Assembly: GCA_965205405.1 (NCBI GenBank)
Contig: OZ242169.1
Span: forward strand, 136,896-200,895
DNA from: Gammaproteobacteria bacterium
Lineage (GTDB): Bacteria; Pseudomonadota; Gammaproteobacteria; Eutrophobiales; Eutrophobiaceae
Reading direction: 5' to 3'
Length of the DNA: 64,000 nt
The position numbers and the translations under genes were made by a program. This document shows, piece by piece, positions 6,640 through 52,585 of this stretch. The notes beneath the pieces are model-generated. The model ran no database searches, had not been told where the DNA came from, and saw only the letters and a list, made by a program, of their open reading frames with translations. Every line of letters starts with the position of its first letter. The stretch's first letter is position 1.

Positions 6640-6664
6640 GGGGACAGATTTGAAATCTGTCCCC
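6640..6664. repeat. REP-like palindrome GGGGACAGATTTgAAATCTGTCCCC (family II)
   Basis: Perfect 12-bp inverted arms between convergent mnmA and MATE genes; related copies at 20131-20204, 36633-36656 and 52401-52561. Confidence 0.85.
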
Positions 6665-6696
6665 AGCCGCGCTTATTAAGCATTGTGTCCCCAGAA

Positions 6697-9918: not shown

Positions 9919-10059
9919 GCCACAGAGGACACAGAGATCACAGAGTAAATCAAAGATATTTTAATATGTACGGGTGGCCTGTATGTTAATCACTTGGTGT
10001 CACCAGGCTACGCAAAAGTATTAAACCCTTAACTCTGTGGTCTCTGTGTCCTCTGTGGC
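9919..10059. repeat. MITE/REP-like element with (CACAGAG)3 inverted arms (family III)
   Basis: GCCACAGAGGACACAGAGATCACAGAG at 9919-9945 and its near-perfect inverse at 10033-10059; same left arm at 40135. Confidence 0.85.
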
Positions 10060-10068
10060 TATAATAAG

Positions 10069-16880: not shown

Positions 16881-17879
16881 ATGAAACACGGAGACATATT
16901 AGTCGACAATTTCGGCCGAACGGTGGACTACGTCCGTATCTCGGTAACGGATCGTTGCGACTTCCGTTGCGTGTACTGCATGGACGAAGAAATGCAGTTC
17001 GTTCCCAGGGCCAAATTGCTGTCCCTGGAAGAAATTTCGGTGATCGCCCGGGCTTTTACCGAGCTGGGTGTCAGCAAGATACGCATCACCGGCGGCGAAC
17101 CGTTAATCAGGCGGAACATCACCAAGTTATTCTACGATATTGGTGAACTGGAAGGCTTGAAGGAGCTGACTCTCACCACCAATGGTTCGCAATTACCGAA
17201 ACTGGCAGGCGAACTGAAAGAAGCCGGCGTCAAACGCATCAACATCAGCCTGGACTCGCTCGACCCGGATAAATTCAGGCAGCTGACCCGCGTGGGGGAA
17301 CTGGACAAGGTGCTCGCCGGTATTGACGCTGCCCTGGCAACCGGGTTTAAAAAAATCAAGATCAACTCCGTCATTCTGAAAAACCGCAATGATGATGAAA
17401 TTCCGGACCTGGTCGGGTTTGCCGCGGCGCGCGGCATGGACATCAGCTTCATCGAAGAAATGCCTCTTGGCGTTATCGGCGACCATGACCGCGCCGAGGC
17501 CTATTATTCGAGTGACGAGATCAGGGCTGACCTGGAACAACGCTATACCCTGTTGCCGACCACCGAGACGACCGGCGGTCCGTCACGCTACTATAAGATT
17601 GTTGAAACCAATACCAAGGTAGGCTTCATTTCGCCCCACAGCCATAACTTCTGCGACAGTTGCAACCGGGTCAGGCTCACTTGCGAGGGTCGCCTGCTGC
17701 TCTGTCTCGGCCAGGAACATTCCGTGGACTTGCGCCAGGTCATCCGGTCCCATCCCGGTGACATGGACAAGTTGAAACAGGCATTGCGCGCGTCCATGGC
17801 CATCAAACCCAAGGGACATGAATTCGATCTCTCAGCCAAACCCGTCATTTTCCGTCATATGAATATGACGGGAGGGTGA
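16881..17879 (+). CDS. moaA: GTP 3',8-cyclase MoaA (radical SAM)
   Basis: RISVTDRCDFRCVYCM, RITGGEP, FCDSCNRVRLT and C-terminal MTGG. Confidence 0.97.
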   Translation: MKHGDILVDNFGRTVDYVRISVTDRCDFRCVYCMDEEMQFVPRAKLLSLEEISVIARAFTELGVSKIRITGGEPLIRRNITKLFYDIGELEGLKELTLTTNGSQLPKLAGELKEAGVKRINISLDSLDPDKFRQLTRVGELDKVLAGIDAALATGFKKIKINSVILKNRNDDEIPDLVGFAAARGMDISFIEEMPLGVIGDHDRAEAYYSSDEIRADLEQRYTLLPTTETTGGPSRYYKIVETNTKVGFISPHSHNFCDSCNRVRLTCEGRLLLCLGQEHSVDLRQVIRSHPGDMDKLKQALRASMAIKPKGHEFDLSAKPVIFRHMNMTGG

Positions 17880-18059
17880 GCCGGAATCAAAAAAAGACAC
17901 TTAACGTGTCTTTTTTGATGTGCGCCATCCGTGGCACACACCCTGCGGGCGCCCTTTGAGCGTCCAAATCTGCTCCGGGCAGATTTGTCACGGCGAACGA
18001 CACAACAAGGATGTTGTGGCTGGGGTTTAACGAAATTGCTGAAGTCGCACCAGGGATGG
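17874..18059 (+). repeat. About 186-bp multi-hairpin dispersed repeat, copy 1 (family V)
   Basis: About 88% identical by hand alignment to the reverse complement of 23193-23377; begins GGGTGAGCC inside the last moaA codons. Confidence 0.88.
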
Positions 18060-18132
18060 TTACTCAATACTTTATAAGCTTGATAAACTCAAGACATCAA
18101 TATGATATTCCCGGCGAACACAGTATCAAGTT

Positions 18133-18999
18133 ATGAATAATTCATTATGTCGCCGGCCGGCGATGACGAATGCCGGTGTCGAGCCTACCATTGCTGTCGA
18201 TGCGGTTGACGAGTTCCGGAATATCCGGGAAATGTACATCGCTGATGAACGACCGCTTACCATCTACGTTGACAGCTACGAGATCGTCACCCTGATGACA
18301 CTCGGAAAAACTCCCGAATTACTGACCCTTGGGTACCTGAAAAACCAGGGCATCGTTGAGGACATCAACGAAATCCGCTCGGTACAGGTAGATTGGGAGG
18401 TGAATGCCGCAGCGGTGACCACCTACTCGGAAAGGGACGATTGGAAAGATCGGCTGGGACCGAGAATAGTGACTACGGGTTGCGGCCAGGGGACGGTGTA
18501 CGGCAATATCCTGGAGCAGATAGACCAGATAGAGTTGCACGCGACGCGGCTCAAACAATCGGATATCTATGCCCTGCTGAAAAACCTGGCCAGCTATAAT
18601 GACGTCTACAAAAGCGCCGGCGCCGTGCATGGCTGCGCCTTGTGCAGCGGAACGGGAGTAGCCATTTTTATTGAGGACGTGGGTCGACACAATGCCGTCG
18701 ACGCTATCGCCGGACAAATGTGGCTTGATGGCATACCCGGCCATGACAAGTTGTTTTACACCACCGGCCGGTTGACTTCGGAGATGGTGCTGAAAGTGGC
18801 GCAAATGGGTATTCCGGCTCTGTTATCCCGTTCGGGCATCACCCAGATGGGCCTGAAACTTGCCATGGATTTTGGCGTTATCCTGTTTTCCCGTGCCAAA
18901 GGGAAGCACTTCCTTGTCTATCACGGCGCTGAGCACATTGATTTTGATGTGTCACTGCCACCGAAGCGCGCAGTTGCAAACCTGAAAAGCGCCGGCTGA
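18133..18999 (+). CDS. fdhD: Formate dehydrogenase accessory sulfurtransferase FdhD
   Basis: ERPLTIYVD…TLMTLG, TTGCGQGT, GAVHGCAL, EDVGRHNAVD and TTGRLTSEMVLK motifs. Confidence 0.93.
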   Translation: MNNSLCRRPAMTNAGVEPTIAVDAVDEFRNIREMYIADERPLTIYVDSYEIVTLMTLGKTPELLTLGYLKNQGIVEDINEIRSVQVDWEVNAAAVTTYSERDDWKDRLGPRIVTTGCGQGTVYGNILEQIDQIELHATRLKQSDIYALLKNLASYNDVYKSAGAVHGCALCSGTGVAIFIEDVGRHNAVDAIAGQMWLDGIPGHDKLFYTTGRLTSEMVLKVAQMGIPALLSRSGITQMGLKLAMDFGVILFSRAKGKHFLVYHGAEHIDFDVSLPPKRAVANLKSAG

Positions 19000-20144: not shown

Positions 20145-20204
20145 ACATCGTGAACACCGGGGACAGATTTAAATCTTTCCCAGCATTGCCATAATTCTGT
20201 CCCC
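20131..20204. repeat. Family II REP arms (GGGGACAGATTT x2 plus an inverted arm)
   Basis: Arms at 20131, 20159 and 20195-20204; the first encodes the mobB end (RGQI-stop). Confidence 0.75.
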
Positions 20205-21479: not shown

Positions 21480-21510
21480 CTGGATTCCGGCGCATGCCGC
21501 GATATTTGGG

Positions 21511-21595
21511 ATATTTGGGGTCAGAGTAAAAATACAATCCCTCTGGTATGTGGTGCTGAATTATCGCTAAGTATTTTTACTCTGACCCCAAATAT
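21511..21595. repeat. 85-bp MITE/REPIN-like element (family I): 25-bp TIR ATATTTGGGGTCAGAGTAAAAATAC with a 35-bp core
   Basis: Perfect inverted arms at 21511-21535 and 21571-21595. Confidence 0.9.
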
Positions 21596-21638
21596 GCAGT
21601 GAAATAATACGCCACCTTCGGTGGCACATTTTTAGTTT

Positions 21639-22612: not shown

Positions 22613-22717
22613 ATATTTGGGGTCAGAGTAAAATATTTGGGGTCAGAGTAAAAATACTTAACTATGATCCCGCATACCTGACCAAGAGGACTGTATTTTT
22701 ACTCTGACCCCAAATAT
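22613..22717. repeat. Family I element with an extra stuttered left arm
   Basis: Arms at 22633-22657 and 22693-22717 (35-bp core), partial arm at 22613-22632; touches the moaE stop. Confidence 0.9.
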
Positions 22718-23160
22718 TAAGTCGAATAACCTGAGGTATTCCGATCAACCCAGCGTTCTCCGTTTTTGACGGACTCTTTTTTCCAGAACGGCGCTCTGTG
22801 TTTCAAATCCTCGATAATGAAACGGGTCGCGTCCATGGCGTCACCCCGATGGGCTGCCCAGGTAGCGATCAGCACGATGTCATCGCCTATATCAATGTCA
22901 CCGGTACGGTGCAGGACCAGAATATCCAGTACGGGCCATTGTTTTTTTGCTTGCGTGCAGATCTCGTTCAGGTGTTTTTCAGTCATGCCCGGATAATGCT
23001 CCAGGGACATGCTACGGACTTCCTCGCCTTCGTTGTAATCCCGCATCGTGCCGATAAATATACAGTTTGCGCCGGATTTTCCCGGGCTTTCGGGTAACGC
23101 CTGGTAGTCCTTTAGTTCCGTCAGGGCATCGAAAGGCGCCGGTCTTAATTGTATTTGCAT
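22717..23160 (-). CDS. moaE: Molybdopterin synthase catalytic subunit MoaE
   Basis: FIGTMRD, LEHYPGMTEK, LHRTGD, AHRGDA and LKHRAPFWKKE motifs. Start set at MQIQL (23160) because the longer ORF runs into repeat family V. Confidence 0.93.
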   Translation of the reverse strand: MQIQLRPAPFDALTELKDYQALPESPGKSGANCIFIGTMRDYNEGEEVRSMSLEHYPGMTEKHLNEICTQAKKQWPVLDILVLHRTGDIDIGDDIVLIATWAAHRGDAMDATRFIIEDLKHRAPFWKKESVKNGERWVDRNTSGYST

Positions 23161-23192
23161 GATGATTGTCTCAATCGGGTGTTGATGACATG

Positions 23193-23377
23193 CCATCCCT
23201 GGCGCCACTTCAATATCTTCGATAATCCCCAGCCACAACATCCTTGTTGTGGCGTTCGCCGGGACAAATCTGCCTGGAGCAGATTTGGACGCTCAGAGAG
23301 CGCCCGCAGGGTGAGCGCCAAGGAAGGCGCACATCTAACAGACACGTTAAGTGTCTGTTTCTGTTTCCGGCTCACCC
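23193..23377 (-). repeat. Family V multi-hairpin repeat, copy 2
   Basis: Homologous to 17874-18059; begins GGGTGAGCC in the last moaD codons and lies between moaD and moaE. Confidence 0.88.
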
Positions 23378-23605
23378 CCCTGTAACCGGAGGGAAAAACG
23401 CGACTTCATCTCCCTCCAACAATTCGGGGTCGCCTTTTACATGTTCCATGTTGACGGCTACAAGCAGTGCGCTCGGCATTGCCTCGCCCCCGGAGGTTAT
23501 CCGCCAGACGTCCGAAACCCTCAGGCCGGATGTATATTCCACCTGATCCTCTGCGCGCCCCATTTCCTCACGGATACGGGCAAAAAACTTGACTTTTATA
23601 AACAT
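23372..23605 (-). CDS. moaD: Molybdopterin synthase sulfur carrier MoaD
   Basis: 77 aa, VKFFARIRE…VAVN…GDEVAFFPPVTGG. Confidence 0.95.
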   Translation of the reverse strand: MFIKVKFFARIREEMGRAEDQVEYTSGLRVSDVWRITSGGEAMPSALLVAVNMEHVKGDPELLEGDEVAFFPPVTGG

Positions 23606-23707: not shown

Positions 23708-24181
23708 ATGTCAGAATTAACACATTTCAATGAAACCGGGGAGGCGCAGATGGTTGACGTCGGCGCCAAGGACGCGACCCATCGCGTTGCCGTAGCCGAA
23801 GGGATAATCAGGATGCAGGACAAAACCCTGGCCCTGATCATGGAGGGAGGTCACAAGAAGGGAGACGTGCTGGGAATCGCCAGGGTCGCCGGTATCATGG
23901 CAGCAAAGAAAACCGCGGAACTCATTCCGCTCTGCCATCCACTCGTCATCAGCCATATCGACATCGGTCTTGCGCCCAAGCCTGACCAGGGCGCCGTTTA
24001 CTGTCAGGCCCGGGTAGAGACCATCGGTCCGACCGGCGTTGAAATGGAGGCATTAAATAGCGTCCAGGTTACCCTGCTCACGATCTATGACATGTGCAAA
24101 GCCGTTGACCGGGGCATGAGCATCGAATTTGTCAGACTCCTGAAAAAATCAGGGGGAAAATCCGGCGACTGGGACAGATAA
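23708..24181 (+). CDS. moaC: Cyclic pyranopterin monophosphate synthase MoaC
   Basis: [43 protein letters not shown] and TGVEMEAL motifs; start moved to the ATG at 23708. Confidence 0.96.
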
Positions 24182-24210
24182 CTCAGCGGCTTCTGCTAAT
24201 TTCACCCAGA

Positions 24211-24306
24211 GGGTTTTGGGGGTTGTTTGTCCGTGACTAGCGCCAGGGACGAGCGCGGGACGGGCCAGGGATGGCCCTCGGAACGGACAAACAACCCCCA
24301 AAACCC
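24211..24306. repeat. 96-bp element with perfect 24-bp inverted arms and internal GCCAGGGA(T/C)G hairpins
   Basis: GGGTTTTGGGGGTTGTTTGTCCGT (24211-24234) and its exact inverse (24283-24306) between convergent moaC and the dehydratase gene. Confidence 0.85.
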
Positions 24307-24331
24307 GGTTAGCGGGAACTGCTGAAGATGA

Positions 24332-24721
24332 CTAGTTATACTTGATATATTTAAATCTTTGATCGTCCGGCGTGCCGTCCAGTGCGCTGTCGTCTTCCAG
24401 TCCCGGTTGCCACATTAATACTTCTTCAATCTTCTTTGCCAGTTCGAAGTCCTTGTCGGTCACCCCTTTTGCCGCGTGGTTCATCAATTTGACGATGACA
24501 AAAGCATAGCTTGCCGTCAGGTCGGGATGATGCCAGGCCGCCTCGGCCAGGTGGCCGACCGTATTGATTACCATCAGTGTAGCTTTCCAGCCGCTGGTCT
24601 TGTACTTGCGCCGAATCCAGCCGCCTTCGTAATACCAATGCGGCAATTCATCCTTGAGTCGTTGTTCTATCTCGTCCACCTCATAGGGGGCATCTTTTGT
24701 TTCTTTACGCCACTTTGCCAT
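24332..24721 (-). CDS. Pterin-4a-carbinolamine dehydratase (PcbD-like, C1-cluster type)
   Basis: AEAAWHHPDL…KLMNHAAKGVTDKDFELA motif; sits in the methanopterin-type cluster. Confidence 0.88.
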   Translation of the reverse strand: MAKWRKETKDAPYEVDEIEQRLKDELPHWYYEGGWIRRKYKTSGWKATLMVINTVGHLAEAAWHHPDLTASYAFVIVKLMNHAAKGVTDKDFELAKKIEEVLMWQPGLEDDSALDGTPDDQRFKYIKYN

Positions 24722-27518: not shown

Positions 27519-27818
27519 ATCCGCAGATTACGCAGATTAACATCAATTCAGGACACCCATCAATTCAGGATATCAATTCAGGACATCCATTAATTCAACA
27601 AAGCCAGGGGATATGCAATTTATGGGTGTCCCAAATTATGCCTTAATTCAGGACACCCATTAATTCAGGACACCCATTAATTCAACAAAGCCAGGGGATA
27701 TGCAATTTATGGGTGTCCCAAATTATGTTCCGTGCAATTTATGGGTGTCCCAAATTATGCTTCCCAAATTATGTTCCGTCAATTCCGGCGATTATGTTCC
27801 CCCTGTGGCCTCTGTGGC
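27519..27818. repeat. Stuttered array of AATTCAGGACACCCAT / ATGGGTGTCCCAAATT arms with two duplicated 50-bp units
   Basis: TAATTCAACAAAGCCAGGGGATATGCAATTTATGGGTGTCCCAAATTATG at 27591-27640 and 27678-27727, plus multiple partial arms. Confidence 0.85.
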
Positions 27819-28761: not shown

Positions 28762-28882
28762 GGGATATTTGGGGTCAGAGTAAGATATTTGGGGTCAGAG
28801 TAAAAATACTCAACAAGAAACAAGCGCCACCTGATAACCTGACTGTATTTTTACTCTGACCCCAAATATCCAACCCCAAATA
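28746..28882. repeat. Family I element with stuttered partial arms on both sides
   Basis: Arms at 28785-28809 and 28845-28869 (35-bp core); partial arms at 28746, 28765 and after 28870. Confidence 0.9.
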
Positions 28883-30282: not shown

Positions 30283-30395
30283 GGACATTTGGGACATTTG
30301 GGGTCAGAGTAAAAATACCCTAATAGAAACAAGCTCCACCTACCAGCCTGACGGTATTTTTACTCTGACCCCAAATGTCCTGACCCCAAATGTCC
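30283..30395. repeat. Family I element with stuttered arms
   Basis: Arms at 30294-30318 and 30354-30378 (35-bp core); overlaps the folP 3' end. Confidence 0.9.
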
Positions 30396-32164: not shown

Positions 32165-32236
32165 GGCTGTACGGGATTTGGCTGACTTGCGCCTGAATAA
32201 CTGCACCGGGATATAGTGCCAGGGATGGAACTTCAA

Positions 32237-32321
32237 ATATTTGGGGTCAGAGTAAAAATACGTTCAAGTTGGCAGGTGATCCCAGATAATAGTTGAGTAT
32301 TTTTACTCTGACCCCAAATAT
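32237..32321. repeat. Family I element
   Basis: Arms at 32237-32261 and 32297-32321; 35-bp core. Confidence 0.9.
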
Positions 32322-32329
32322 TCTTACGT

Positions 32330-33285
32330 TTAGATTTCACCCAGGAGCTGTTCTCTCTTCTGTTCATATTCCTCGGCGCTGATCAGTTCCTTATCACGCA
32401 GTTCCTGCAAGGTCAACAGTCTCTGCTCAATTGTCTGGGTTGAATTCCCTTCGGTTGAGGATTTCATCTCCTTGCGCATCTTAGCCAGTTCCAGACGCAT
32501 CTCCCGTCTATCCCGCGCCATCTTAGCCGCCTCGGCCTGCATTGCCGCACTGGTCACGGGTTCCTGCGGCGCCTGTTCCGCCTTTTCAGCAAGGTACACC
32601 GATGCCGCCTGTTCCAGGTCTATTTCTAATCCAGTCGCGGCGTGATTTTTTGCCATCAACGTGAGGCTCAACGCCGGCCCTGGCAACTACGGAACCCTTA
32701 AAACCGACGGATTTGGACCGGCGGCCATGTCTGAAGTACTGCTTTGTATCCGTTACGCCATGGCTCCTTTCAACTGTTTCCTTGAACCTGTCGCCTTCAT
32801 GATCATAATCTCCGATGATGACATGCAGCTTGCCATCCAGGTAGAAAACACGCCCTCCCGTATAACCCCTGTTCTGAATGACCAGATATTTCTTTTCCGA
32901 ACGGGCCAGCACAAAGACGATGTCCTGGTCCGTCCTTGCCGTGGATAAGCCTGTGGCGATAAATTGCCCAAGCAGGCGGGCCTGTTGCAGGGAAAACAAA
33001 TTCTTGAGTTGTTTTTTCTTGAAGAACCCCCCGCCGCTCCAGGCTTCGATTCCTTCGAGCGCGCTGGTGACCTGGTTGGACATCCAATCGCACCGGGTGC
33101 TGGTTCGGCGGTGTCACATCCTTTTTGGACTGGTCCTGATCGGTCAGCCGGATATACAGGTTGGAACCGGATTTCCACAGGACTTCATCGTTCGAGCCGA
33201 AGTTGGGCAATAAATCAGCCTGGATAATACCTGCACACAACAGCAGAAGCAGATACAGGATGCCGGTTTTTGTAAATCTTCTCAT
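32330..33285 (-). pseudogene. Secreted SHOCT-domain protein split by two +1 frameshifts (or sequencing errors)
   Basis: Three consecutive ORF pieces (signal peptide; central domain; C-terminal IEQRLLTLQELRDKELISAEEYEQKREQLL SHOCT) join after removing single extra bases near 33080 and 32625. Confidence 0.75.
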
Positions 33286-34677: not shown

Positions 34678-35002
34678 TATTCTCCTCCTCAGGAAAGGTA
34701 ATAAGCTAAAAGATACTTCGATTTCAATTATTAAAAATTCTTTGTCCTGGTTCCTAAGATCAACCTATTGGTACAAGGATATTGCATGATTGAAGAAATT
34801 GCAACATATTAAAGGCAATAATACAACACTTTTTTACAATTTTTTCTATTATTTATCATAAAGTTGTTTCTTTTATGCAACATTATTCCCGTCAAGACAA
34901 TACTTATAATAAAAATAGCGATTAATTCCTTGTTAAAACCACATTCAGGCTCATTCATCTACAGGTGGGACTTCGGTTAGTCTATGAGTTGCCATCCTTG
35001 GC

Positions 35003-35257
35003 TCACCCACCCGCTACCGGCGGCCATATTGCCAGGGTGTCTCCATCATTGAATACGGATTTGTTGCGGTCCTCAGGTTTTATATATACACCGTTCAACA
35101 GCACCAGGTGAGCCATTTCCCTCGGCACCTTGTACCTGTCGATGACTTCATAAGCGGTATTGTGTTCGGCTATTTCTATGATGAGTTTATTATCCTTGGT
35201 ATCAGGGGGAAGATAATCGGTTAAACCGGCGTAGAGCTTGAGTGTCAGCTTAAACAT
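35003..35257 (-). CDS. AOR-associated MoaD/ThiS-family sulfur carrier
   Basis: 84 aa, KLYAGLTDYLP…LVLLNG…GDTLAIWPPVAGG; last gene of the AOR operon. Confidence 0.9.
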   Translation of the reverse strand: MFKLTLKLYAGLTDYLPPDTKDNKLIIEIAEHNTAYEVIDRYKVPREMAHLVLLNGVYIKPEDRNKSVFNDGDTLAIWPPVAGG

Positions 35258-36632: not shown

Positions 36633-36656
36633 GGGGACGGACTTAAGTCCGTCCCC
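36633..36656. repeat. Family II palindrome GGGGACGGACTTAAGTCCGTCCCC
   Basis: Perfect 24-bp palindrome between the aorB-like and aorC-like genes. Confidence 0.85.
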
Positions 36657-36675
36657 GGTGTCCCCGGACAAACTG

Positions 36676-39342: not shown

Positions 39343-40134
39343 ATGAAAAGTATTGTTTTTATCATTCTCTGTCTTGCCTGGAGCGGTGCGGGAGCAACAG
39401 AAATCAGGATTGCGTTCATAGGTCCTGACAACAACAGCGCGTACAAAGGCGTTGAACAGGGTATCCACGAGGCGAACCTGCAAGGCCGGTTCCTGAGCCA
39501 GAGCTATTCCCTGCATAGGTTCAGCGGCGCGGATATGGACGCAATCGACCCGGCCGGGTTTATCGCCATTATCGTCTCCACGAATGCAGACGACCTGCAA
39601 CAGGCCGCGCGGCGCTTCACGGATCACGCAATCCTGAACGTGGCCGTACACGACGACGGGCTAAGGGAAGAATGCAGTGCAAATCTTCTTCACGTTATAC
39701 CCAGCAGGAAAATGCTGGCGGACGCCAAAGCCCAATGGTTGCAAAAATCGCCGGGCGACGAGATAAACGTTTCCGGCTGGCACCCTGATTTTGTGAAATT
39801 CGCCGCACGGGACCTGAATAAACGCTACAAGAAAAAGTTTTCCGAAGCCATGGACCAGTATGCCTGGGCCGGTTGGGCCGCGATCAAGATGGCCTCGGAT
39901 TCGGTGGCAAGGAAAGATTTAACCGACCCCGTCGCGCTGTTGAACCATCTTAAGACCGGATTGTCGTTTGACGGCCAGAAAGGCCTTGACATGGATTTCC
40001 GCGACACCGGGCAGTTGCGCCAGCTACTGCTTATTGCCGATACTGCCGGAGAACTGCTGGGCGAAGCGCCGGTCAGAGGCGTCGTCGCGCCTGACGACGT
40101 GGATAGCCTGGGTCTGGCTTCCTGTTATAATTGA
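39343..40134 (+). CDS. Periplasmic substrate-binding protein of the PQQ alcohol-dehydrogenase-associated type (short form)
   Basis: Signal peptide, GIHEANLQGRFL, GWHPDFVKFAARDLNKR and FDGQKG…FRDTGQLRQ motifs; directly upstream of the beta-propeller gene. An alternative start at 39325 is possible. Confidence 0.7.
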   Translation: MKSIVFIILCLAWSGAGATEIRIAFIGPDNNSAYKGVEQGIHEANLQGRFLSQSYSLHRFSGADMDAIDPAGFIAIIVSTNADDLQQAARRFTDHAILNVAVHDDGLREECSANLLHVIPSRKMLADAKAQWLQKSPGDEINVSGWHPDFVKFAARDLNKRYKKKFSEAMDQYAWAGWAAIKMASDSVARKDLTDPVALLNHLKTGLSFDGQKGLDMDFRDTGQLRQLLLIADTAGELLGEAPVRGVVAPDDVDSLGLASCYN

Positions 40135-40213
40135 GCCACAGAGGACACAGAGATCACAGAGAAAAGTCAGAAACAGCGGAGCTTTGCCCAGCAAGCTCTG
40201 TGCACTCTGTGGC
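40135..40213. repeat. Family III CACAGAG element
   Basis: GCCACAGAGGACACAGAGATCACAGAG starts right after the SBP stop; partial inverse CTCTGTGCACTCTGTGGC at 40196-40213. Confidence 0.8.
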
Positions 40214-41196: not shown

Positions 41197-41312
41197 GTCC
41201 ATTCCTGCGCAAGCAGGAATCCATAAATAATAAATGGGGTCAGAGTAAAAATACCGGCATTGATCGGTACTGTTAACTCTTGCTGTGTATTTTTACTCTG
41301 ACCCCATTTATT
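41197..41312. repeat. Family IV hairpin (41197-41223) next to a family I element (32-bp core)
   Basis: ATTCCTGCGCAAGCAGGAATCCA, then TGGGGTCAGAGTAAAAATAC (41235-41254) with its inverse at 41287-41306. Confidence 0.85.
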
Positions 41313-44091: not shown

Positions 44092-44164
44092 GCCGGATTA
44101 GCTCAGTTGGTAGAGCGCCCGCCTTGTAAGCGGATGGTCGGCGGTTCGAATCCGTCATCCGGCA
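44092..44164 (+). tRNA. tRNA-Thr (anticodon TGT), CCA not encoded
   Basis: Cloverleaf: acceptor GCCGGAT/ATCCGGC, D-arm GCTC/GAGC, anticodon loop CT-TGT-AA, T-loop TTCGAAT; followed by A-TCA. Confidence 0.9.
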
Positions 44165-44238: not shown

Positions 44239-44754
44239 GGTACTGACAACTTAACTCTTTTGGCCCAGTAGAAATTCATTGTTCGGAATCAAGCGACTGC
44301 TTTTGTCCATTGTCCAAAGGCATCTATCCTGAGTTTTTTGTAATGCTCAGCACGTACAAGATGTCGTCCAAGGTTGAAAAGATTGTAGACCGCTGCGTGG
44401 ACATTCAGAAATCGCTGAGCCTGCGCAGTTGACTTGAAGCGCCTCATCCCGCGTTCTCTGACTCTGGTCGGCTGATGAGATAATTCCTTTGCTGCCGCTC
44501 CATCACGGCGCGATTGTAGAAATACATCAATCACTTCACCCTCCTGGCAACCTGTTATTGGCATATGTGCTGTGTTATGGATAGTGTTCGGGATCAGCTC
44601 ACGCTGTGCCAGCAGGTCTTCAATATCCCGGTGGCTAAGATTGAATCGAAAGTAAAGCCAGACTGCATAACTAATGATATCGGGGGGAAACCGATGACGT
44701 TTATATGTATTCATTCCCGCATTATCCATTTTCGGGAGTTAATTTGTCAGTACC
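44239..44754 (-). mobile_element. IS6-family element, internally deleted and scrambled (516 bp)
   Basis: TIRs GGTACTGACAA(C/A)TTAACTC at both ends; transposase fragments HRFPPDIISYAVWLY and RVRERGMRRFKS. Confidence 0.9.
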
Positions 44755-44850
44755 CGCGGCGCATAGACGAATGACGGCAACCGGCGTGCGGGTTTCCAGA
44801 CGGGGAGGTGTGCAGGGTTGGACATGGCCAGTTGAAATCTGAATTTAATA

Positions 44851-46395: not shown

Positions 46396-47169
46396 GGTAC
46401 TGACAAATTAACTCCTGTGGCCCAGTAGAAAGTTGTCGTTCGGAATCAAGCAACAGCTATTGACCATTGTCCAAAGGCATCTGTCCTGAGTTTTCTATAA
46501 TGCTCAGCACATACAAGGTGCCGTCCAAGGTTGAAAAGATTGTACATCGCCGCGTGGATAGTCAGAAATCGCTGTGCCTGTGCTGTTGACTTGAAGCGTC
46601 TCATCCCGCGTTCTCTGACTCTGGTCAGCTGATGAGACAACTCCGCCCTATTGTTGGCATACTGTGTCGTGTTATGGATAGTGTTCGGGATCAACTCACG
46701 CTGTGCGACGCCATAGCTTCGCAATTTATCGGTTACAATTTGCCTGGGCTCTTCACCCTGTCTTCGCAGCAAGCGTATAAAGAATCGTTTAGCTGCTGCC
46801 CCATCACGGCGTGATTGTAGAAATACATCAACCACTTCACCATCCTGATCAACAGCTCGCCATAGATATTGTTGCTTGCCGTTTATCTTAACGAAGACTT
46901 CATCGATGTAGAATGTGTCTCCATAGCTTGTGTGTCGGCGCTTCAACCGCCTGGTATAAATCCGACCAAACTTGATACACCATAACCGGATGGATTCATA
47001 GCTGACGATTATTCCACGTTGTGCCAGCAGATCTTCAATATCCCGGTGGCTGAGATTAAATCGAAAGTAAAGTCAGACAGCGTAGCTGATGATAGCGGGT
47101 GGAAACCGGTGACGCTTGTATGTATTCATACCGGCATTATCCATTTTCGGGAGTTAAGTTGTCAGTACC
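46396..47169 (-). mobile_element. IS6-family element (774 bp); transposase has a nonsense mutation
   Basis: TIRs at 46396-46414 and 47151-47169; DDE-region motifs YIDEVFVKING…WRAVDQDG, IVTDKL and NNRAELSHQ; YAV-TGA where copy 1 has YAVW. Confidence 0.92.
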
Positions 47170-47559
47170 CTCGCGTGTATTGATTTCGACTTTTAGCCGA
47201 AGAGGCAATTGAGGAGAGCCTTCGGACACAAATCGGTAGTTGAAGGTGATGCGGGATTCGGTTTGTTTGTACTTCGGTTCACCCAACCACGGATTCAGAA
47301 CCTCGTTCAGTGCGGCCATGACCGGTCCCGCCGGTTCGGCGTTCACCTGGACAAGATCAATATCTTCAGAATACCTTGCCGGTGGCAAGTGGAGTTTAAA
47401 CAGGGCCGTCCCGCCTCGGAAAGCAAGCGCGCTGTGCAATACCTCATTCGAGAATATCTCTATGAGCGCGCGGCTGATGATGAGATCCTGCTCGACTTGC
47501 GCGTCATCAACCCACGGCGCTCGACCCCGCCACTCTGTGATGTAGTCGTACGGGATCAT
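47170..47559 (-). pseudogene. AbiEii/type IV TA nucleotidyltransferase toxin, 3'-truncated by IS6
   Basis: QVEQDLIISRAL, FRGGTAL and RYSEDIDL motifs; after KVEINTRE the frame runs into the IS TIR (GTDNLTPENG). Confidence 0.88.
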
Positions 47560-52400: not shown

Positions 52401-52561
52401 GGACGGATTTGAAATCCGTCCCCATAGCGCTCTCAACCCCCCAGTAGAGCGCGTCCCGGACTATCGCTCCGGGGTGGGGATGGATTTTAAATCCGTTATC
52501 GGTGGGCAACCCGCCGCGTGATGGGGCGGGTGGACTGGGGACGGATTTGAAATCCGTCCCC
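52401..52561. repeat. Three family II hairpins (GGACGGATTTgAAATCCGTCCC)
   Basis: Copies at 52401-52422, about 52476-52498 (degenerate) and 52537-52561. Confidence 0.82.
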
Positions 52562-52585
52562 AAAGCGCTCCGGGTGGAGAGGCGG

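Follow-up and report, generated by a model that had tools for sequence, protein, structure and literature searches.

We analyzed a 64,000-nucleotide stretch of a gammaproteobacterial genome (assembly GCA_965205405.1, contig OZ242169.1, positions 136,896 to 200,895; hereafter, the window) in which a structured repeat of about 186 bp occurs twice among genes of molybdenum cofactor (Moco) synthesis, at the 3' ends of moaA and moaD. The repeat proved to be a composite, an outer element of about 114 nt with a second element of about 74 nt nested inside it, and not the single 186-bp unit that an earlier, sequence-only reading of the same DNA had described. We consider it likely that these composites are selfish, non-autonomous mobile repeats belonging to two nested families. 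The repeats are mobile and multicopy, they share a target motif, and they keep a covarying fold.

Strain polymorphism and composite structure

Near-identical strains carry the repeat in three allele states, empty, outer-only (114 nt) and composite (186 nt), which we found by searching public assemblies for proteins identical to MoaA and MoaD (comparison loci are given by L numbers). With an identical MoaA, the moaA–fdhD site of L002 is empty and reads GGA GGT TAA ATG, the stop codon adjoining the fdhD start; with an identical MoaD, the empty moaD site of L067 ends GGG GGG TAA and the moaE ATG follows 11 nt on. The outer-only form occupies both sites in L001, where the left arm of the moaA-site copy (copy A) is joined straight to its right arm without the inner element, and the moaD site in L062–L065 and L068–L071, again with identical MoaD. 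The composite form is present in the window strain and at the moaD site of L066. The inner sequence of L066 is the variant that the window strain has at its moaA site; because it differs from the variant at the window's moaD site, the inner element must have entered independently at the same position.

Metagenome contigs over the region contain all three joints, including the direct joint from 17916 to 17991, and many differing sequences abut both element borders. Summed metagenome depth is 4–7 times that of the flanks over the outer arms and 28–40 times over the inner element (17917–17990). The inner element is matched by nhmmer at E 1e-24. Beyond the window it stands alone in L035 and L049, and the same position in outer copies of L047 and L056 is taken by diverged versions of it with compensating stem changes. 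The inner element of ~74 nt is an independent repeat of much higher copy number than the outer one, and it has been inserted more than once at one fixed outer position, between the 3' strand of the extension of the first hairpin (P1) and CCGGC. The elements are co-transcribed with the upstream gene, as metatranscriptome contigs run from moaA or moaD into them (contigs only, with DNA carry-over possible).

The two window copies lie at 17874–18059 on the plus strand (copy A, 186 nt) and 23193–23377 on the minus strand (copy B, 185 nt), both in sense orientation. A global alignment of the two gave 163 matches, 22 mismatches and 1 gap (87.6% identity), which recovers both copies as the sequence-only reading had placed them and agrees with its hand count of about 23 differences. 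Repeat finding in the window returned them as two inverted pairs, I1 (17914–18059 / 23193–23338, 146 nt, 88%) and I8 (17868–17914 / 23337–23383, 47 nt, 87%). Both open with GGG-TGA-GCC, placed on the final Gly codon and stop codon of moaA (16881–17879, plus strand) or moaD (23372–23605, minus strand; C-terminal GG), ahead of fdhD (18133–18999, plus strand) and moaE (22717–23160, minus strand), respectively. Open reading frames (ORFs) and Pfam matches (Radical_SAM and Mob_synth_C in MoaA, the ThiS family for MoaD, FdhD and MoaE downstream) bear out this gene setting, which had been read from the letters alone. Single-sequence folds of the copies are serial hairpins (z = −1.9 and −5.4). Searches of the window for further copies, with core 24–25-mers of the repeat at up to 3 mismatches (0 expected) and with a covariance model of the outer element run with filters off, returned no additional one.

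In copy A the outer left arm (17874–17916; covariance model 32.4 bits, E 8.6e-07 for this arm alone) consists of GG^G-TGA, in which the G past the left junction (marked by a caret) completes the last MoaA Gly codon as its third base and TGA is the stop, followed by a tandem GA, the P1 base GCCGG and the hairpin AAAAAAGACAC-TTAAC-GTGTCTTTTTT. The inner element (17917–17990, plus strand, ~74 nt) forms three hairpins, and its left border is placed to within 2 nt because of a T run there. The outer right arm (17991–18060; 60.5 bits, E 6e-14) comprises CGGCGAACG, the P2 hairpin CACAACA-AGGA-TGTTGTG, a linker and the 3'-terminal P3 hairpin ACC-AGGGAT-GGT. Copy B, on the minus strand, has the same order: a left arm on the last moaD Gly codon and stop (23338–23377; 22.9 bits, E 2e-4), an inner element of a sequence variant other than that of copy A (23263–23337), and a right arm whose P2 and P3 hairpins carry CANGGANG loops (23192–23262; 63.7 bits, E 1e-14).

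A covarying outer family in Acidiferrobacterales-like genomes

An exact-pattern scan of one genome per species yielded 54 loci that match the outer element. Nearly all are in uncultured Gammaproteobacteria, Acidiferrobacterales-like metagenome-assembled genomes (MAGs) under the names Sulfuricaulis, Sulfurifustaceae, Acidiferrobacteraceae and 'Ca. Muproteobacteria', with a few loci on contigs binned elsewhere; a single 3.77-Mb chromosome holds 11 of the 54. The unit is 112–117 nt long and has a constant layout: GGG-Y-GA, GCCGG, a short internal loop, a 10–12-bp hairpin, CCGGC, GA-R-CG, P2, CYGGGG, a linker of ~25 nt and GCC-ANGGAY-GGC. A covariance model run on 398 kb of loci gave 101 matches, among them copies with other hairpin tips, P1 bases AGCGG/CCGCT and GGCGG/CCGCC, tail-to-tail doublets and tandem arrays. 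The doublets occur in seven loci of GC-rich genomes (L014, L017, L029, L043, L044, L046 and L055); the window copies and most others are singlets.

The fold is strongly maintained across the family. In 35 distinct copies, analyzed with RNAalifold and by counting over 27 pairs, 97.9% of paired cells were complementary, as against 85.7% in shuffles and ~40% when partners were slid; double-sided changes occurred at 12 pairs (116 cells versus 37), and the covariation score was reached in none of 500 shuffles. G-U occupies 10 cells among these pairs and A-C 5. The compensatory A-T to C-G change that the sequence-only reading had noticed between the two copies falls in hairpin 1, at columns 23/41, which are AU in 33 copies and CG in 2. 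Column 4, the T/C of GGGTGA/GGGCGA, pairs with column 54, the A/G of GAACG/GAGCG (C-G in 18, U-A in 15), next to tandem G·A pairs of the form 5'-GA/5'-GA. The in-frame TGA is thus one of the element's structural alleles, and the lower-GC genomes are where it is typical.

A comparison of such a model with Rfam had been proposed in the sequence-only reading; the model shows this covarying fold and no Rfam family matches it. At the gathering threshold, Rfam returned only tRNAs in the window and 10 loci, and a search up to E = 10 of both copies and a GC-rich doublet gave only sub-threshold, chance-level matches to Ysr224, sX7, isrK, RsmW and Twister-sister. A blastn search of a plasmid collection with the outer-element sequence gave no match.

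Target sites and junctions

The target of the outer element is GG^(T)TA(A/G), a sequence available both where a Gly codon meets a stop and at G18G19 in the tRNA D-loop. The two empty alleles read GG^TTAA (moaA) and GG^TAA (moaD). In tRNA genes the insertion point comes after D-loop residues G18G19 (TTGG^TAGAGC), and reconstruction gives GG^ATAG, GG^TTTAA and GG^AAATAG at other targets. A shared target, whose lack would have spoken against target-specific insertion, thus exists, although it is not the one first supposed. The sequence-only reading had named GGGTGAGC as the target; that sequence is really the element's own 5' end, its T covarying with an internal A. Likewise GGGTGAGCC (3 occurrences in the window, 0.69 expected) belongs for the most part to the element, as its 5' end. 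The element also enters itself: nested copies lie after the GG of NGGA loops in resident copies at L009, L015, L020, L027, L032 and L039.

The two junctions differ in kind. The left junction is precise in all cases, with GG(G) microhomology. On the right, at tRNA and several other sites, the element is followed by 3–40 nt of unrelated filler and then by an 18–53-bp direct duplication of upstream sequence that ends exactly at the left junction, which at tRNA sites leaves a 5' tRNA fragment upstream and an intact tRNA gene downstream; 5' fragments of six different tRNA species are represented. We rejected an RNA-level event with duplications starting at the mature tRNA +1, because the duplications reach 1–15 nt upstream of +1, and a tRNA-like fold of the 5' fragment with the element (a D-arm mimic, GCTC...GAGC), because copies at other sites have no such 5' strand. 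The moaA and moaD sites have no duplication; there 8–21 nt of ancestral junction have been replaced by 26–92 nt of filler, and fdhD and moaE open with codons that are richer in AT in filled than in empty alleles. Local nhmmer searches over the loci found right-truncated copies (L012, L049) and no left-truncated ones. Tandem arrays at L010 (5189–5656) and L038 (1379–1612) contain successive non-identical copies, each followed by a fresh 40–53-bp copy of the same target, and therefore reflect repeated insertion into a regenerated target.

In the window, the final GGG codon and TGA of moaA are partly supplied by the element where the empty allele has GGT TAA directly followed by the fdhD ATG. The AT-rich filler before fdhD (18061–18132, plus strand), which is not in the empty allele, takes the place of ~21 nt of ancestral junction; it contains a sigma-70-like promoter match at 18080–18109 and a fragment, CCCGGCGAAC, resembling the element core. 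Filled alleles encode an FdhD that starts MNNSLCR, the empty one an FdhD that starts MPSESY. On the minus strand, the filler from the 3' end of copy B to the probable moaE start (the ATG at 23160) covers 23161–23191, where the empty allele has only TAAACCGGTCATC, and the first MoaE residues are MRVEL when the site is empty and MQIQL when it is filled. Gene callers extend moaE to 174 aa (22717–23241, and likewise in L001, L063 and L064) from an ATG within the P2 hairpin GGATGTTGTGG; the 147-aa moaE from 23160 agrees with the empty allele and the Pfam domain. Gene calls for moaE and other ORFs that run into the element present an annotation problem.

Genomic neighbours and the Moco association

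The outer family is not specific to Moco genes. ORFs that end in the element's TGA or 1–3 nt before it encode NAD kinase, XerD, GcpE/IspG, RuvA, an MBL hydrolase, a CoxM-type flavoprotein, a 4Fe-4S protein, HtrA, SecF, an ABC ATPase and ThiS; the XerD-linked copies occur in three genomes, where the natural XerD end is ...HHPRG, and the ThiS-linked copy lies upstream of ThiG. The T-variant overlaps a stop codon in about 14 of its 29 copies. An ORF would be extended by the GC-rich C-variants, and these lie 20–60 nt past stops or within other palindromes. At nine loci the element stands just upstream of a tRNA gene (Lys, Arg, Gly, Ser or Thr). Nearest-ORF tables made from raw ORFs are too noisy in GC-rich DNA for a dependable orientation census.

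These neighbours bear directly on the proposal that the repeat is a cis-regulatory RNA of Mo/W-cofactor operons, a riboswitch or attenuator that responds to Moco or the tungsten cofactor. In its favour, both window copies are structured, lie in sense orientation in Moco clusters ahead of another Moco gene, and in copy A a hairpin precedes a T run. However, strains with identical MoaA and MoaD proteins lack the element, most of the family adjoins unrelated genes or tRNAs, the very finding that the sequence-only reading had said would count against a Moco role, and neither the Moco riboswitch RF01055 nor any other Rfam family matched, at the gathering threshold in the window or up to E = 10 at both copies. 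As to termination, the copy A hairpin GACAC-TTAAC-GTGTC is followed by T6, but these Ts pair with an upstream A run; a terminator scan passes over copy A and calls nothing on the plus strand, and its sole call at copy B is on the strand antisense to moaD. The GC-rich members of the family lack the U tract. We regard the Moco-sensor explanation as already effectively refuted and its chance of being right as negligible. The other suggestion of the sequence-only reading, a MITE (a miniature transposable element with inverted repeats) that happens to strike genes ending in Gly-Gly, was essentially right about a mobile repeat; it does not hold for the target, and there are two nested elements with neither terminal inverted repeats nor a short fixed duplication. 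A structured repeat that occurs twice in one pathway's operons can, as here, mimic a riboswitch while being a mobile repeat.

Proposed mode of insertion and alternative explanations

We propose that the outer element (~114 nt: GG^GYGA, the long hairpin P1, GARCG, P2, linker, P3) copies itself into GG^(T)TA(A/G) sites. In moderate-GC genomes its 5' end reads G-TGA, and an element landing after two bases of a terminal Gly codon would restore the Gly and supply a stop, leaving the protein unchanged. Such silent insertion would make Gly-ending proteins (MoaA, MoaD, ThiS, XerD and others) tolerated landing sites. Both window copies would then be in Moco genes because MoaA and MoaD end in Gly, and the Gly-Gly ends of MoaD, ThiS and MoaA make the Gly-stop target over-represented in the Moco pathway. 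The conserved fold may be what a mobilizing enzyme recognizes, as single-stranded DNA or as RNA, and copying would begin at the precise left junction and end imprecisely at the right, in a one-ended or target-primed manner; from the scars, we infer a closer resemblance to target-primed or one-ended replicative insertion than to DDE cut-and-paste transposition. The probable local effect is a loss of translational coupling between moaA and fdhD and between moaD and moaE, with a strongly folded intercistronic RNA and, later, a rise in AT content over the opening codons of fdhD and moaE. In the window these gene pairs are now 253 and 212 nt apart, with strongly folding RNA between them.

Several observations weigh against a mobile repeat of this kind. 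All-against-all comparison of ORFs in the 8-kb flanks of the 54 loci revealed no transposase, reverse transcriptase or other mobilizing enzyme and no recurrent protein other than orthologous housekeeping genes, and no excised or circular intermediate was seen. With no terminal inverted repeats or fixed-length duplication, the element fits no known transposition chemistry cleanly; group II introns, IS200/IS605 palindrome-associated transposable elements (PATEs), IS607 (with its GG crossover) and IS91/Helitron-like elements each fit some junction features, and we rejected them because none accounts for the long variable duplications together with the structure. About half of the T-variants overlap a stop codon versus a rough estimate of ~4–20% from a GG(N)TAR preference and purifying selection, an excess that possibly points to a positive function, or to a cue that directs the element more specifically to ORF ends. 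The occupation of the same sites (the xerD stop, tRNA-Lys and tRNA-Arg) in divergent genomes could mean long retention and not repeated insertion, and filled/empty differences at the right junction could come partly from allelic recombination.

That last point leads to the alternative that nothing transposes and that the repeats spread and are homogenized by recombination or gene conversion between short motifs (GGGTGAGCC, CCGGCGAAC), the apparent insertions being allelic replacements. Filled and empty alleles do differ beyond a clean insertion, with a replaced junction and altered first codons, a third Moco site described below is rearranged between two (GGG)TGAGCC motifs, and the inner element is present in each window copy and missing from each copy of L001. 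We nevertheless judge this explanation improbable, because precise left junctions and fresh local duplications, including the 5' fragments of six tRNA species, are found at dozens of unrelated sites, different strains have differing inner variants at the same site, and copies are nested within GGA loops. Somewhat less remote, though still unlikely, is the mechanistic sub-hypothesis of a retroelement resembling short interspersed nuclear elements (SINEs), in which a nick made after GG would prime, at the target, the reverse transcription of an antisense element RNA. It would account for the precise left junctions with GG(G) microhomology, the variable duplications of 18–53 bp ending exactly there, the filler of 3–92 nt or small target deletions on the right in filled relative to empty alleles, the truncation of copies on the right side only (L012, L049) and the retention of structure through G-U intermediates. 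Yet truncated copies are few, the excess of G-U over A-C (10 versus 5 cells) does not decide for an RNA strand, neither a reverse transcriptase nor an endonuclease partner came to light in the locus flanks, an obvious 3' tail, A-rich or otherwise, is missing, the antisense RNA would need a precise 3' end that nothing specifies, and one-ended DNA mechanisms (HUH/rolling-circle-like) or microhomology-mediated template switching leave similar scars.

A further alternative keeps the mobile repeat and adds a host function, with the element retained at gene 3' ends by a cis-acting RNA role: its two CANGGANG loops would bind a CsrA/RsmA-type dimer, or its long hairpin would stabilize or punctuate the upstream mRNA. 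We rate this lower than purely selfish spread, as a minority possibility, albeit the strongest of the alternatives. CsrA favours the consensus RUACARGGAUGU, established by SELEX, and its dimers bridge sites 10–63 nt apart (PMC7652899). The element has the corresponding features, a GGA in a hairpin loop within A/U-CANGGANG-U/A (PMC7652899), with two CANGGANG motifs 44–45 nt apart in 32 of 35 copies, where 0.06 motifs are expected per 114 nt, and P2 of the window copies reads AACAAGGAUGUU, close to that consensus. The sense-orientation bias directly past ORFs is strong, the elements are transcribed with the upstream gene, and RsmW gave the best of the sub-threshold Rfam matches, a weak one: within the CsrB/Rsm clan (CL00106) it scored 14.7–18.7 bits against a gathering threshold of 52, with E 0.46–5. 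On the other hand, GGA loops are the family's own insertion targets and would be conserved without CsrA, through a part in end and target recognition, one copy is antisense in each tail-to-tail doublet, and an essential role is made less likely by the element's presence in some near-identical strains and absence from others. A tblastn search with E. coli CsrA found none in the window and loci, which is uninformative, as these total ~460 kb from many genomes. The CANGGANG loops, which in sequence and spacing fit dual-site binding by CsrA/RsmE, may be recognized by CsrA; the element would then act as a portable module of post-transcriptional control, and adjacent genes would join a post-transcriptional regulon.

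Comparison with known repeats

The outer element is a small structured mobile repeat akin to ERIC, REP/BIME and MITEs, and lies outside any named family. ERIC/IRU sequences, 127-bp imperfect palindromes of Enterobacteria and Vibrio, are similar in being non-coding and multicopy, of comparable size (~110–130 nt), transcribed, intergenic near ORF ends and able to form RNA hairpins. Longer ERIC variants arise when ~70 bp are inserted internally, at positions that are fixed; the 74-nt inner element, with its one fixed place in the outer element, is a parallel case. The outer element differs from ERIC, by architecture and not by sequence comparison, in having three hairpins instead of one long imperfect palindrome, no terminal inverted repeats, a GG^TAR target, stop-codon overlap, tRNA D-loop insertions and long variable duplications, and in its Acidiferrobacterales-like hosts. 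REP/BIME/REPIN sequences, mobilized by RAYT proteins of the IS200/IS605 type, are likewise short structured repeats just past genes that form mosaics of hairpin modules and conserve structure over sequence. Of inverted doublets like those of REPINs, the outer family has the seven tail-to-tail loci noted above, most copies being singlets. The outer element begins GYGAGCC without a GTAG/CGTC tag and measures 114 nt versus 20–40 nt, REPs have no long target duplications, and no RAYT gene was seen in the 8-kb flanks of the copies. Classical MITEs such as Correia/NEMIS and Nezha share non-autonomy, multiplicity, presence/absence polymorphism, intergenic location and co-transcription with neighbours. 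Unlike them, the outer element has no terminal inverted repeats (5' GGGYGAGCCGG versus GCCRTCCCTGG for the reverse complement of the 3' end) and no short fixed target-site duplication, having either none or 18–53 bp with filler, and its GG target lies in hairpin-loop or Gly-stop settings.

Rickettsia palindromic elements, structured repeats of ~100–150 nt, also sit in or against coding or RNA genes without destroying them, but they insert in frame and are translated, whereas the outer element escapes translation by its own stop codon and occurs in a different lineage. SINEs and other non-LTR elements that use target-primed reverse transcription leave a similar scar, with one precise junction and one variable junction bearing filler, truncation, variable duplications or small target deletions. 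The likeness is of scars only: the outer element showed no reverse transcriptase partner, tail or internal promoter, and to our knowledge nothing of the kind is established in bacteria. With the CsrB/RsmY/RsmZ small RNAs the element appears to share GGA in hairpin loops (CANGGANG), two per element at a spacing that would suit CsrA dimer bridging, but it is not a stand-alone small RNA gene with its own promoter and terminator. Like the Moco riboswitch, it is a structured RNA alongside Moco genes; unlike it, it lies at gene 3' ends and not in a 5' untranslated region, is polymorphic among strains, stands mostly beside unrelated genes and has no covariance-model match.

It is conceivable, if unlikely on balance, that the outer element represents an undescribed kind of bacterial mobile element: a protein-less unit of ~114 nt that homes to GG^TAR in hairpin loops and Gly-stops by one-ended, target-primed and possibly RNA-templated (SINE-like) copying, brings a CsrA-type pair of GGA hairpins and a stop codon to gene 3' ends, and so rewires operon coupling and post-transcriptional control. 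Whatever its mechanism, this is a well-delimited, strongly covarying family absent from Rfam that overlaps stop codons silently and probably breaks the translational coupling of operons. It enters tRNA genes at G18G19, a universally conserved position, yet regenerates an intact tRNA gene, nests in itself, hosts a second element at a fixed position and leaves junction scars that standard bacterial transposition chemistries do not explain.

A collapsed third copy and other repeats of the window

A third Moco site, on the stop of a MoaD-like gene linked to AOR, carries a 21-nt sequence (34988–35008, minus strand) that reads GGGTGA-GCC-AAGGAT-GGC(AAC), in which the family's first nine bases are fused to a perfect P3 hairpin. 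Its covariance-model score is weak (5.5 bits, from the 3' part only); the combined motif is far too specific for chance. In close strains the site reads GGGTGA-GCC-A(A/G)GGAT-GGC, with variation in the loop alone (AAGGA/AGGGA). L058, L072 and L073 instead have GGGTGAGCCGGATAAAAC and a different hairpin, followed by a gene of the AOR operon for a ~98-aa protein that the window strain has lost. Of the two options in the sequence-only reading, a collapsed or an empty site, the former is borne out: the site is a collapsed or rearranged family member and not an empty target.

The protein lost from this operon (~87–101 aa; L058 1768–2133 and L072–L076) ends ...AYQKGGG and has no Pfam or NCBIfam match. 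With 81 homologues, it is a conserved fourth gene of an operon for AOR, an FAD-oxidoreductase and the MoaD-like protein in related MAGs, deleted in the window strain; this membership led us to reject an integron attC-like cassette at the L058 site. A GC-clamped hairpin, GGGGAC(A/G)GATTT-(G)AAATC(T/C)GTCCCC, recurs at gene ends in the window (6642–6673, 20149–20181, 36634–36666, 52401–52432 and 52539–52570) and in L049, L058, L072 and L073. In L058 and L072 it comes after a GGGTGAGCCGG leader, as if able to replace the P1 tip of the outer element.

Other repeats of the window are of different kinds. A family of ~97 nt has six copies within 20 kb (21510–21606, 22632–22728, 28784–28880, 30293–30389, 32236–32332 and 41219–41311) with perfect-looking terminal inverted repeats of ~25 nt (ATATTTGGGGTCAGAGTAAAAATAC ... 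GTATTTTTACTCTGACCCCAAATAT) and looks like a classical MITE; two of its copies flank an MBL gene between moeA and moaE. Just downstream of moaC, 24178–24339 contains an inverted pair of 68-nt repeats (I7; 71% complementary, 26 nt apart). The region 27545–27727 has short direct repeats AATTCAGGACACCCAT and a 69-nt unit at 87-nt spacing, with the look of iterons or a binding-site array. A 31-nt motif, GCCACAGAGGACACAGAGATCACAGAG, forms an inverted pair 79 nt apart within 9919–10060 and is found again 30 kb off at 40134–40174. Finally, tRNA-Thr(UGU) at 44092–44164 is followed by two segments of ~0.5 kb (44239–44758 versus 46396–47173; repeat families D2, D5, D10 and D12) that are 88–93% identical and ~2.1–2.4 kb apart, and may represent a duplicated gene or an integrated element.

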